Virus record (IMG/VR): IMGVR_UViG_2700989363_000008
Span: 1-31,580 of that record
Direction: 5' to 3' (one strand)
Length of the DNA stretch: 31,580 nt
Source of the DNA: a virus
Lineage: Duplodnaviria; Heunggongvirae; Uroviricota; Caudoviricetes
Shown here: positions 1 through 9,042 of the stretch, piece by piece
Position numbering within the stretch: position 1 is the first letter of the stretch
Layout: each line of letters opens with the position of its first letter
The notes under the pieces: model-generated
Databases searched by the model: none
Told to the model about the DNA's origin: nothing
What the model saw: only the letters and a program-made list of their open reading frames with translations
Translations under genes and position numbers: made by a program

Positions 1-3151
<3,151 letters not shown>

Positions 3152-3177
<26 letters not shown>

Positions 3178-3697
3178 TCAGCAACCCCGGTATCAGTTCA
3201 TCCAGCGCGGCTGCTTTGTTCATGGCTTTGATGATATCCCGTTTCAGGAAATCAACATGTCGGTTTTCCAGTTCCGGAAAACGCCGCTGCACCGACAGGG
3301 GGATCCCGTCGAGAATACTGGCAATTTCACCTGCGATCCGCGACAACACGAAAGTACAGAATGCGGTTTCCACCACTTCAGCGGAGTCTCTGGCATTCTT
3401 CAGTTCCTGTGCGTCGGCCTGCGCACGCGTAAGTCGGTGGCGTTCGTACTCAATAGTCCCTGGCTGGAGATCTGCCTCGCTGGCCTGCCGCAGTTCTTCA
3501 ACCTCCCGGCGCAGCTTTTCGTTCTCAATTTCAGCATCCCTTTCGGCATACCATTTTATGACGGCGGCAGAGTCATAAAGCACCTCATTACCCTTGCCAC
3601 CGCCTCGCAGAACGGGCATTCCCTGTTCCTGCCAGTTCTGAATGGTACGGATACTCGCACCGAAAATGTCAGCCAGCTGCTTTTTGTTGACTTCCAT
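3152..3697 (-). CDS. nu1: Terminase small subunit, lambda Nu1-like (181 aa)
   Basis: ORF MEVNKKQLADIFGASIRTIQNWQEQGMPVLRGGGKGNEVLYDSAAVIKWYAERD... matches lambda Nu1 from memory; 3' end overlaps the start of A. Confidence 0.95.
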
Positions 3698-3699
3698 TG

Positions 3700-3886
3700 C
3701 TCATTCCACGGACAAAAACAGAGAAAGGAAACGACAGAGGCCAAAAAGCTCGCTTTCAGCACCTGTCGTTTCCTTTCTTTTCAGGGGGTATTTTAAATAA
3801 AAACATTAAGTTACGACGAAGAAGAACGGAAACGCCTTAAACCGGAAAATTTTCATAAATAGCGAAAAACCGCGAGGTCGCCGCCC
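3700..3886 (-). other. cos: cos packaging site: cosB region upstream of nu1 and cosN 12-nt cohesive-end sequence at 3875-3886
   Basis: 3875-3886 reads aggtcgccgccc, the reverse complement of the lambda cohesive end GGGCGGCGACCT. The 3700-3874 stretch matches the lambda left-end leader (GGTTTTCGCTATTTATGAAAATTTTCCGG...) in reverse complement, as recalled. Confidence 0.85.
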
Positions 3887-3942: not shown

Positions 3943-4012
3943 CAATGTAGTCCGGTTTCTTCCACCATCGCACCGGACAGGCGACTATGAGGGGACAACG
4001 CCGCGCTCCGTT

Positions 4013-4131
4013 AACGCGGTAAACCCCGGTGTGTATCGTTTTTGATTATCCCCGCACACTCGCGCAGAGGAGTCTCCCTGTCGGGCTGCGGTCTCTGTTA
4101 ATGAGGGAATACAGCGACGATACGGCGCATG
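4013..4131. repeat. Direct repeat copy 1 (~118 bp, ~85% identical to copy at 5799-5916)
   Basis: gcggtaaaccccggtgtgtatcgtttttgattatccccgcacactcgcgcagaggag...cgggctgcggtc recurs at 5799-5916 with scattered substitutions. Together the copies bracket the cargo cassette. Confidence 0.8.
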
Positions 4132-4244
4132 ATGTGTCAGGCTTGAATACATTTATCCGTTAAAAGGGATATCAGTTAAGTTATCCCGTGTAGGGTATAA
4201 GCCATTATCAAAGCCACTCAGTAGCGAATGGCTTTTGTAATGGA

Positions 4245-4694
4245 CTATTTAATTAGTGATGCTGCGTATTCGATTAGATATAACTTAGGTGCCAACCAGA
4301 TTTTTAACCATGTCATATTGGTTACTACAGCAATAATAAAACTTACCCACAGAACAAAAACTGCTGCTAATGGTAAGATAAGAAAACTAATCTCACCGTT
4401 ACTTTCCCAAATCATAGTCGGTTTGTATTTAGGCTTCCCTTTTTCCCATGACCATCCTTCATTATCGAACTTACCAATTTCAACTTTTTGGTACTGTTTC
4501 TTCATAAACCAAATAACCAGCGGGATTGTTGAAATGGCTATTAATGTTTTAATCAGGCTATCAACCATATTCCATACCAGCAACTGATGAACAACATCCG
4601 GAATCTGAGCCTGACTGAATGCAATGGCGGAATCAATTCCATCGCTGGCCTTCTTCAATAAATCAACAAGAATTTTATTTGCTTCTTCTTGCAT
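4245..4694 (-). CDS. Small membrane protein (~149 aa, two predicted transmembrane helices), unknown function
   Basis: ORF 4245-4739; start preferred at the internal Met (4694), which has AGGA 6 nt upstream. Hydrophobic stretches LIKTLIAISTIPLVIWF and ISFLILPLAAVFVLWVSFIIAVV. AT-rich codon usage unlike the flanking phage genes. Confidence 0.55.
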   Translation of the reverse strand: MQEEANKILVDLLKKASDGIDSAIAFSQAQIPDVVHQLLVWNMVDSLIKTLIAISTIPLVIWFMKKQYQKVEIGKFDNEGWSWEKGKPKYKPTMIWESNGEISFLILPLAAVFVLWVSFIIAVVTNMTWLKIWLAPKLYLIEYAASLIK

Positions 4695-4818
4695 GTTTAT
4701 ATCCTGTAAGTTGTAAGCCTGTTCGAGAAAAATAAACAACTACGAGAGACAGAAAAAAATATCTCAGGCTCTCTTTCTATAAGCTTTTAGTTGAGGATGT
4801 TCTGCAAAACAAAACTGG

Positions 4819-5679
4819 TTAGTTATGTAACTGCTTCCGGAATACAACAGCCGACGAGCTACAACGTAAAATTCGTTTGATTGTGGCAGTTGAGGAAACA
4901 GACTTGCATTTCTCAACATCATCAATAATGACCACATCCGGTACAGGAATGACGCGGGTATGCAATGTTTTTGCACTAATAACATCACAGCCATTCAGTG
5001 GTCGAATATCTGCATCTTCAGGCACTACCAGAAGCACACGTTTTTCCGGTGCAGAAAAGCCAGCAGCAAGAGTGCGTGACAATAAAGTCATTCCGCTGCG
5101 TGGCTTCATACAAATTTCAGAAATATGATTCTTTTCGTCCAAATGATGCTGGACATCATTTTTATCATCACTCAACAACTCTGCTGTTAATACAATCCCT
5201 GCTGTCTCAGATTTCCAGGAAATGCTGATATCCTGATCATCTGCATCAACATCATATTTCATCGAGTAAGGACTAAAGCTACGTCCAACGAACGCATCAT
5301 TTACCAGTACACGCCCACCCTGTCTGACCTGAAAGTCAACGCGCCCGGAAAGCTGATTTGCTGTTACAAGCAATGCCTTTTTTCTTTTTGTTTTATTGCT
5401 CATTGCCACCAACTGTTCAGCCATCTCTCTTGTCACACTACCAGAAACTCTTCCTTGCATTTTCACAGAAAATTTTCTGGATGTAGTAGCATCGACATTA
5501 AAAAATCTGGATGTAATCAGGCAGTTATTAACAATTGGCATCAGCTCACTTACGATTGTAAAAAATTCCCGGTAAAGCTCATTTTGCTTTTCAACACACA
5601 GCTTTCCACAATCGTCCAGCTTACGCTCAAGAGCACTTAACCTTTCCATTATTGAATTAATTTTTTGCAACTCTTTCAT
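4819..5679 (-). CDS. Hypothetical soluble protein (286 aa) with N-terminal coiled-coil-like segment; first gene of cos-proximal cargo cassette
   Basis: Start ATG at 5679 is preceded by AGGAGGTTTT (reverse complement of 5681-5690). The track's longer 373-aa ORF is an artefact of upstream read-through across the palindrome. No motif I can assign by eye. Confidence 0.65.
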   Translation of the reverse strand: MKELQKINSIMERLSALERKLDDCGKLCVEKQNELYREFFTIVSELMPIVNNCLITSRFFNVDATTSRKFSVKMQGRVSGSVTREMAEQLVAMSNKTKRKKALLVTANQLSGRVDFQVRQGGRVLVNDAFVGRSFSPYSMKYDVDADDQDISISWKSETAGIVLTAELLSDDKNDVQHHLDEKNHISEICMKPRSGMTLLSRTLAAGFSAPEKRVLLVVPEDADIRPLNGCDVISAKTLHTRVIPVPDVVIIDDVEKCKSVSSTATIKRILRCSSSAVVFRKQLHN

Positions 5680-5702
5680 CAAAACCTCCTGACAAAGATA
5701 CC

Positions 5703-5720
5703 GTGCGACCACGGTCGCAC
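5703..5720. repeat. Palindrome family 1 copy (GTGCGACCACGGTCGCAC): F-sopC-like candidate SopB centromere site
   Basis: Perfect 18-bp palindrome 24 bp upstream of the 4819-5679 start codon. Core TGCGACC-AC-GGTCGCA differs from the F plasmid SopB box TGGGACC-AC-GGTCCCA at one position per half-site. Confidence 0.6.
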
Positions 5721-5798
5721 GCTCCTGAATACATGCCCTGTTTCTTCCACCCTCGCACAGGACTGGCGAGCATGAGGGACAAACCCGCGAATCATTAG

Positions 5799-5916
5799 TG
5801 CGGTAAAAACCCGGTGTGCATCGTTTTTGATTATTTCCGCACACTCGCGCAGAGGAGTTCCCCGTCGGGCTACGGTCATGGTTAATGCGGAAATACGGCG
5901 ACGATGCAGCGCGGTA
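5799..5916. repeat. Direct repeat copy 2 (pairs with 4013-4131)
   Basis: See copy 1. Lies in the upstream region of the 286-aa gene, between two family-1 palindromes. Confidence 0.8.
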
Positions 5917-5922
5917 TTTAAT

Positions 5923-5939
5923 GTGCGACCACGGTCGCA
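5923..5939. repeat. Palindrome family 1 copy (GTGCGACCACGGTCGCA)
   Basis: 16-bp perfect palindromic core TGCGACCACGGTCGCA between the DUF4406-like gene and direct repeat copy 2. Confidence 0.6.
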
Positions 5940-5959
5940 AACGAGAAACAAAGAGATTT

Positions 5960-6271
5960 TTATGCTACAGAGGAACAAGCTGGCGGGTAATTCAGCGTAG
6001 TGAATACCGGCATCTCCATCTTGTATGCGTAATGATACTCAGCAGTTGCTCCAGCAGACGCTTTCCAGCCAGGAAGCATCAAAATAGCATCAGCACAACG
6101 AAGCATTGCAAAGCAAATATCCATGTATTCACGTTGTGTCAAACCATTAGGCAAAGTGGCTGGATTCAAGACAGAGTGACCATGTCGTGACAAACGATCT
6201 GCCTCTTTATTAAAGGCGTCACGATTAAAGTTCTCATATCCCGTCATTGGCCCGGCAATATAAATTTTCAT
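5960..6271 (-). CDS. DUF4406 / nucleoside 2-deoxyribosyltransferase-like small protein (103 aa)
   Basis: N-terminus MKIYIAGPMTG... is the characteristic Rossmann-like start of the NDT-like/DUF4406 family as recalled. Sits in the moron position downstream of Rz (where lambda carries bor). Confidence 0.55.
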   Translation of the reverse strand: MKIYIAGPMTGYENFNRDAFNKEADRLSRHGHSVLNPATLPNGLTQREYMDICFAMLRCADAILMLPGWKASAGATAEYHYAYKMEMPVFTTLNYPPACSSVA

Positions 6272-9024: not shown

Positions 9025-9042
9025 GTGCGACCGTGGTCGCAC
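9025..9042. repeat. Palindrome family 1 copy (GTGCGACCGTGGTCGCAC; extends to a 24-bp palindrome 9022-9045)
   Basis: Perfect palindrome in the intergenic region between ORF 9048-9275 and the late leader; central dinucleotide GT rather than AC (same site, inverted). Confidence 0.6.

Follow-up and report, generated by a model that had tools for sequence, protein, structure and literature searches.

The stretch of DNA analyzed here (hereafter, the window) comprises positions 1 to 31,580 of the IMG/VR virus record IMGVR_UViG_2700989363_000008, that is, 31,580 nucleotides (nt) of a tailed phage genome. We focused our attention on two genes, here named A and B, which are found between the cos site and a gene encoding a DUF4406 protein, and which were described in the initial annotation as a cargo cassette bracketed by direct repeats and a candidate for an undescribed abortive-infection or exclusion system. 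The presence of two co-oriented, AT-rich open reading frames (ORFs) at this position was confirmed, with G+C contents of 40.9% for A and 36.2% for B; the window as a whole has 45.6%, and its terminase region 55.6%. Moreover, the AGGAGG Shine-Dalgarno sequence reported for the first gene is located 5 nt ahead of the ATG of A, and two hydrophobic segments were detected in B (residues 43-65 and 98-132, approximately) and none in A, in agreement with the soluble and the two-transmembrane (TM) protein that had been described. A and B are genuine genes: phage PhiR46_1 (PV340565) and approximately 25 nearly identical RefSeq records carry both coding sequences with a hypothetical annotation, and both are under purifying selection, with ratios of nonsynonymous to synonymous substitution rates (dN/dS) of 0.25 for A and 0.14-0.19 for B.

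The statement that neither protein carries an assignable motif also held. Searches of A and B against Pfam, PADLOC and NCBIfam returned nothing at E <= 1, and PHROG matches were limited to families 2571 (A) and 3054 (B), both of "unknown function". In addition, PDB sequences were searched with phmmer and with profiles, without any significant match. As for structure prediction followed by Foldseek, the check proposed initially, AlphaFold2 produced models of low confidence (predicted local distance difference test, pLDDT, of 58 for A and 62 for B), and Foldseek searches against BFVD were uninformative for both proteins.

A and B are separable, as each of them is found elsewhere without the other, and their linkage is frequent, not obligatory. 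The view of the pair as an obligate two-gene unit was thus not sustained: A occurs without B at loci L023 and L024, where a 79%-identical A lies alone between a palindrome (inverted repeat, IR) and cos, and numerous temperate and virulent phages carry B but lack A. Comparison of related loci revealed several states of the same slot. In the window, the order is DUF4406 gene, IR, direct-repeat element, IR, A, B, element and cos. In the chromosomal prophage L022, the order is DUF4406 gene, IR, A and B, with no right-hand copy of the element. In L023, it is Rz, element, IR, A and cos, with a single copy of the element, upstream. In the empty-slot relatives L031 and L032, Rz, element and IR are followed directly by cos and Nu1. 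The presence/absence pattern and deviant composition by which morons are recognized are both observed, with empty, A-only and A-B variants, and G+C contents of 36-41% as to 46-56%. Deletion derivatives were also found: in YDC107_1 (L016, 4050-4646) and in the E. coli plasmids H166-H169, parts of A and B have been lost or fused into a 198-aa ORF, and further derivatives are present among H166-H172. As shown by YDC107_1 and H166-H169, the cassette is dispensable for phage-plasmid maintenance.

The existence of a moron or cargo hotspot near cos, as initially postulated, is borne out by phage N15, in which genes 58-59 occupy the right end between the DUF4406 gene 57 and cosR. N15 shares with the window the replicon type, the slot, the DUF4406 neighbor on the left side and the same SopB-type IR directly ahead of the last cargo gene. 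However, the N15 cargo consists of a Dcm methyltransferase and gp59 (PHROG 13555), which are unrelated to A and B; gp59 was considered as a homologue of A or B and rejected (BLASTP E > 2).

As for expression, a crude promoter and terminator scan of the coding strand revealed neither a sigma-70-like site upstream of A or B nor a terminator after B, and the DNA upstream of B differs in every context compared. Together with the terminator-like hairpin of the IR preceding A, these observations suggest that A and B would be transcribed within the Q-antiterminated late operon, which would run through cos into the head genes.

Overall, the region would represent the variable cargo slot of a Ravinvirus phage-plasmid, located between the lysis cassette/DUF4406 gene and cos, where two independent accessory genes would have been stacked by recombination. 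We assign a probability of roughly 55% to this reading, according to which A and B are independent accessory cargo of a recombination-prone slot, drawn from catalogued, uncharacterized PHROG families. Several points weigh against it. Nearly every full-length A in complete E. coli genomes precedes a closely related variant of B, the A-B block is found on at least three packaging backbones, in both N15-like plasmids and chromosomal lambdoid prophages, and a divergent, stand-alone homologue of one module of A, in L037, precedes B as well; the two genes may therefore be functionally linked. The co-occurrence of the pair at cos, which had been put forward as a check, was indeed observed as a stable block in E. 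coli, but A-only and B-only loci exist as well. In addition, proposals on the function of A or B have no homology to draw on, the structure models are of low confidence, the timing of expression is read from sequence with a crude promoter scan, and the membrane topology of B is ambiguous, as charge balance is indecisive.

Table 1. Features of the window discussed in the text, with positions counted from its first nucleotide.
Feature	Position	Strand	Remarks
gpA ORF	1252-3177		
Nu1 ORF	3152-3697		
cosN, 12-nt cohesive end AGGTCGCCGCCC	3875-3886		Reverse complement of lambda GGGCGGCGACCT; read directly from the letters
Left element copy	3952-4131	(-)	99.5% identical to phage 1720a-02
Conserved backbone stretch	4132-4244	(-)	Between B stop codon and element core; hairpin AAAGCCA...TGGCTTT at ~4200-4232
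Gene B	4245-4694	(-)	149 aa; small membrane protein with two hydrophobic helices; PHROG 3054
A-B intergenic spacer	4695-4818	(-)	124 bp; no terminator or promoter predicted; not conserved upstream of B elsewhere
Gene A	4819-5679	(-)	286 aa; soluble; PHROG 2571
Putative N15-type SopB site (IR), GTGCGACCACGGTCGCAC	5703-5720		23 nt upstream of the A ATG; terminator-like hairpin score on the late strand
Right element copy	5737-5916	(-)	Truncated at upstream edge; best match outside the phage group 95%, phage 2B8 (mEp460 type)
Second putative N15-type SopB site	5923-5940		Imperfect at one end; between DUF4406 stop codon and right element
DUF4406 gene, N15 gene 57 homologue	5960-6271	(-)	E = 3.7e-34; left boundary of the variable slot
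Protelomerase (TelN)	23031-24944	(-)	TelK domains, E = 1e-50
SopA	25592-26758		ParA-type AAA_31, 6e-25
SopB	26758-27723	(+)	Centromere-binding protein, cognate to the palindromes; SoPB_HTH, 7e-25

The direct repeats, reported initially as 118 bp long and approximately 85% identical, are real, but longer than claimed: the two copies, offset by 1785 nt, extend over approximately 180 nt and share 82.6% identity over 178 nt, far beyond chance. In contrast, their role in bounding the cassette was not upheld. Each copy alone gives matches in approximately 400 phage records of GenBank (from Stx phages, phage 21, mEp460 and numerous lambda hybrids), and the element is usually present there in a single copy, after the lysis cassette (Rz) and before cos/terminase, with several different packaging modules. 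Given that these approximately 400 records are cassette-free, and that L022 carries A-B without the right copy, the repeats are neither specific to the cassette nor its constant companions, and represent copies of a ubiquitous lambdoid post-lysis element. Its first ~107 nt are shared by lambda, where they lie in the bor-p78 interval (46,869-46,974), and by the DLP12 prophage of E. coli K-12 (579,010-579,116). Part of the region is matched by 4928 of the 5426 complete E. coli genomes, most of them probably through the element or cos.

As their best outside matches differ (1720a-02 for the left copy and 2B8 for the right one), the two copies derive from different phage lineages. A mobile cassette with its own terminal direct repeats, namely insertion or att-type ends, was considered and discarded, since the repeats are not cassette-specific and come from two lineages. 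The arrangement in the window is best read as the product of a recombination event that duplicated the 220-bp block of IR, element and IR. At the other end, the stretch between B and the left element is near-identical to that of the cassette-free phage PhiR47_1 (L022 was also aligned); as this near-identity reaches position 4244, the junction between cassette and backbone lies at the stop codon of B. Since A and B are also found separately, and the repeats represent an RNA element common among phages, A-B is best seen as ordinary cargo, and not as a demonstrated new two-gene defence system.

The element itself was folded using a diverse subset of 48 sequences, taken from a set of 133 copies (100 of them unique). 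On the strand of the late transcript it forms one long hairpin and smaller ones, with 98.7% of the alignment cells paired and seven compensatory pairs, and none of 500 shuffles reached the observed score. Moreover, the ratio of G.U to A.C was 197:8, and the opposite strand would pair in only 88.8% of the cells. The element is a structured RNA on the late-transcript strand, and the strand-specific conservation of its structure suggests that the element is itself functional within the late transcript, where it might act in processing or stability of the mRNA. No Rfam match was obtained at E <= 5, and a literature search by its sequence found no paper. Two other identities were considered and rejected. 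A coding role (58-aa annotated ORFs, ylcI/DUF3950) was set aside because these ORFs belong to no family, and DUF3950 adjoins the element and is not inside it; an identity with the Pas or AgvB small RNAs was set aside because those loci are near Q and the holin gene.

Resemblances to features of lambdoid phages can be pointed out. Like the boundary sequences (e.g., bsq in CUS-3), the element is a conserved non-coding stretch at a module junction, of the kind that serves as a recombination point, and like the morons, A and B are additional AT-rich genes that some phages carry and others, similar in the remaining regions, lack. Boundary sequences and morons have reportedly both been described in lambdoid phages (Juhala et al. 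2000; Clark et al. 2001), and a moron is said to be an autonomous extra transcription unit (Juhala et al. 2000). The differences are that the element has a strand-specific RNA structure, and that the cargo showed no promoter or terminator of its own in the crude scan.

The two centromere-type palindromes initially reported upstream of the first gene were also found to be real, the nearest being 23 nt from the ATG, but they belong to the backbone and not to the cassette. The palindrome GTGCGACCACGGTCGCA is present at 5703-5719 and 5923-5939, flanking the right repeat, and also at 9025, 14819 and 17262; five sites in the window, as to 0.09 expected. Its 18-bp form, GTGCGACCNNGGTCGCAC, is identical to the IR sites of N15, whose own sites were found by the same pattern (N15 sequences from PMC7205306); IR1 and IR4 of N15 read as the site upstream of A does, and IR2 and IR3 differ just in the central dinucleotide (PMC7205306, Table 4). 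In addition, the cognate SopA/SopB proteins are encoded on the same replicon as the palindromes. By identity with the N15 sites, we take the palindromes to be the plasmid's own N15-type SopB centromere sites.

The likeness extends to their distribution. The N15 sites IR1-IR4 are reportedly dispersed centromere sites (Ravin & Lane 1999), and those of the window are likewise dispersed; one N15 site precedes the last cargo gene, gp59, in the cos-proximal slot, and one precedes the late-promoter region, mirroring positions 5703 and 9025 of the window. However, N15 has four such sites and the window five, the extra one being attributable to the duplication of the IR-element-IR block upstream of A. 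An IR is present at the same position in L022, L023 and the empty L031 and L032, and in the window, L022 and L023 it lies approximately 20-25 nt before the ATG of A. Its presence at the same spot in the empty-slot relatives indicates that the IR is a backbone feature, directly downstream of which gene A has been inserted. Moreover, the IR is also found upstream of A in prophages recorded as chromosomal (L020 and L022), for which a plasmid centromere would be expected to serve no purpose.

The identity of the replicon is consistent with this picture. The presence in the window of protelomerase, SopA/SopB, RepA, Q and a CI-like repressor, together with PhiR46_1 as the closest phage match, for which a telL site is annotated, identifies it, by gene content, as an N15-like (Ravinvirus) linear telomere phage-plasmid. 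YDC107_1 is classified as a Ravinvirus, and approximately half of the near-identical E. coli records are "plasmids" of 46-62 kb. The order of the window corresponds to a lambda-like late and packaging region in reverse orientation. A cosQ-like sequence lies directly to the right of cosN, with cosB/Nu1 on the left side, and the cosQ/cosN flanks are conserved in an alignment with the lambda right end. Beyond the DUF4406 gene lie Rz, R, S and an adenine methylase gene, and Q, the CI-like repressor and a 1327-aa RepA-type primase are encoded further on. The A-B locus is approximately 10 kb away from the repressor gene. Rfam matches were additionally obtained at 21431-21631 on the (+) strand (c4-a1b1, isrK, C4 antisense RNA), which we take to be the P1/N15-type antirepressor control RNA known in N15, and at 27790-27993 on the (-) strand ("IS009"), directly downstream of sopB.

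Protein A, which has no hydrophobic segments, is a mosaic composed of a coiled coil (residues 2-58), a beta module (~100-170) and a C-terminal alpha/beta domain (197-282). The latter carries degenerate P-loop-like motifs, KPRSGMT and VVIIDDVE, which resemble a Walker A motif minus its lysine and a Walker B motif, respectively. An assignment as P-loop NTPase was rejected, as the domain does not comply with the combined Walker A (GxxxxGK[ST]) and Walker B (hhhhD[DE]) patterns. A is an orphan restricted to Escherichia/Shigella, with 15 clusters among 5.8 billion proteins, and an exhaustive HMMER search against 1.84 billion representatives returned 12 matches, one of them full-length. Of the 5426 complete E. 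coli genomes, 35 carry A, and in 28 complete genomes its ORF is intact and preceded by a strong Shine-Dalgarno sequence. The beta module is also found as stand-alone proteins of ~90 aa, encoded immediately after Rz in various lambdoid prophages (L037 1335-1607, P0143 and P0144, and also L038, L053, L056, L077, L081 and L141), and elsewhere it is fused to other C-termini, e.g., a different coiled coil (PHROG 2091). Domain shuffling of this module is evident. We infer that A would be a soluble mosaic protein with an accessory role independent of B, and it is treated as such here.

Protein B, on the other hand, belongs to a large family, with more than 480 clusters across Enterobacteriaceae, the members of which are named in their sources just as "phage transmembrane protein". 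Full-length conservation spans Enterobacteriaceae, Vibrio and several phage families, and B-like DNA is present in 215 of the 5426 complete E. coli genomes. Conservation is very high in the N-terminal 45 and C-terminal 23 residues, and the TM and loop regions are variable. The AlphaFold2 model has four helices, and no match to PDB or BFVD was found. Where B occurs without A, its settings are diverse. In P22-like and lambdoid prophages, it lies in the early-left (PL) operon, directly after N, ral or sieB. In Klebsiella, it follows the lysis genes and overlaps a KilA-N gene, and in a Pantoea P2-like prophage it is found between endolysin and Rz/Rz1, the position of lysA in P2. It is also present in virulent N4-like phages (FSL SP-076 and Vibrio 1.238.A), in rV5-like phages (muut) and in Vibrio myophages. 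In the Pantoea prophage (L014), the Rz-type i-spanin gene was unannotated; its ORF (4456-4923, 155 aa, with the Rz1 gene embedded) had been replaced by the gene caller with an 80-aa ORF on the opposite strand, and the stop codon of the B-family gene overlaps its start.

The occurrence of B in temperate and virulent phages, often early, often beside sieB or ral, and sometimes in lysis cassettes, fits a stand-alone inner-membrane accessory protein, most plausibly involved in exclusion or in modulation of lysis. B would act alone as a small inner-membrane protein, its conserved terminal helices would be the business end, and it would block or modulate membrane events, either in superinfection exclusion or in the control of lysis timing. 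In size, membrane location and non-essential accessory status, B resembles T4 Imm, Sp and RI, P22 SieA and SieB, and P2 LysA, which likewise occur in temperate and virulent phages and share with it the sieB/ral neighborhood or the lysis-cassette position. Nevertheless, no homology was detected between B and these characterized exclusion or lysis-timing proteins; its sole match was the unannotated PHROG 3054, with no match in PADLOC, and an exclusion or defence role, either for B or for A and B together, is a possibility.

Among the alternatives to independent cargo, one assigns B, and possibly also A, to the lysis accessories that are expressed late; B would be a dispensable membrane protein that adjusts the timing of holin or spanin, with a role like that of P2 LysA, and not a prophage-expressed defence protein. 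The Pantoea gene stands exactly at the lysA position, with its stop/start overlap onto Rz, B follows the lysis cassette in the late operon both in the window and in Klebsiella, and the stand-alone relatives of the beta module of A are encoded immediately after Rz. However, B was examined as a LysA homologue and rejected (hhalign probability of 2.9%), and most B genes are early (PL operon of P22-like and lambdoid prophages; early/middle in N4-like phages), which is unexpected for a lysis regulator, making this explanation rather unlikely. It would be just as bold to regard B as the founding member of a large, unrecognized family of stand-alone phage inner-membrane proteins (PHROG 3054), mediating superinfection exclusion or lysis control through the conserved terminal helices; in the N15-like and lambdoid phages of E. 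coli, it would have acquired A as a partner for specificity or regulation, and A-B would then be a new two-gene exclusion module, a proposal to which we give a low probability.

The proposal closest to the initial annotation, in which A and B form an undescribed two-component abortive-infection or exclusion system, expressed from the prophage in the manner of RexA/RexB with A as sensor and B as effector, appears slightly less probable still. The tight linkage in E. coli agrees with it, as the block is exchanged as a whole between N15-like plasmids and chromosomal lambdoid prophages that differ in their terminases, and so do the divergent beta-module gene that precedes B in L037, the AT-rich nature of the cargo at an accessory hotspot, and the B-family genes adjoining sieB and ral in other phages. 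The pair also resembles lambda RexA/RexB in that adjacent genes of a temperate phage specify one soluble and one small inner-membrane protein. Four TM helices are present in RexB, and rexAB is expressed together with the cI repressor in the lysogen. The resemblance to RexA/RexB, however, does not go beyond this layout: no sequence similarity was found, including to the Pfam RexA and RexB families, nor any PADLOC match; B has two TM helices and not four; and whereas rexAB shares its transcript with cI in the immunity region, A-B lies in the late operon, not beside the repressor, behind a terminator-like hairpin and with no promoter of its own detected in the crude scan. Moreover, A and B occur one without the other, virulent phages included, and the repeats and palindromes that had been cited in favor of a cassette are backbone features.

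It is very unlikely that the A and B ORFs are decaying or non-functional remnants in a recombination-prone spacer. The derivatives in which A and B are fused or truncated, found in several plasmids and phages, would fit such a view, as would the narrow distribution of A, with its few clusters and one full-length representative. However, dN/dS values of 0.14-0.25, the conservation of B at full length well beyond E. coli, and the genomes in which A is intact and well equipped for translation all argue against decay. The least credible alternative takes A as a bacteriocin-like toxin and B as its membrane immunity protein, since telomere phages do carry toxin-immunity pairs expressed in the lysogen (PMC12042878), such as the telocin-immunity cassettes of Klebsiella telomere phages, and the order of a soluble and then a small membrane protein gives a superficial fit, but the analogy was rejected on locus (between repA and telN for telocins, beside cos for A-B), on domains (telocins are colicin-like with immunity proteins of four TM helices, A has no Pfam domain and B has two) and on separability, as B alone in virulent phages and A without B are incompatible with an obligate pair.

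Altogether, the reading of A and B as independent cargo removes a tempting false positive, as the combination of repeats, palindromes and a soluble/membrane pair mimicked a mobile defence island: the repeats would be a recombination scar built from a phage RNA element of ubiquitous occurrence, and the palindromes would serve the plasmid itself as centromere sites. In E. coli/Shigella N15-like phage-plasmids, the slot beside cos emerges as a cargo site that may be empty or hold one or two genes, and PHROG 3054, to which gene B belongs, as a broadly distributed phage membrane protein that is worth a phenotype screen. Moreover, the strand-specifically structured ~180-nt element of lambdoid late operons, which has no Rfam family, may perhaps be of wider interest than the cassette itself.

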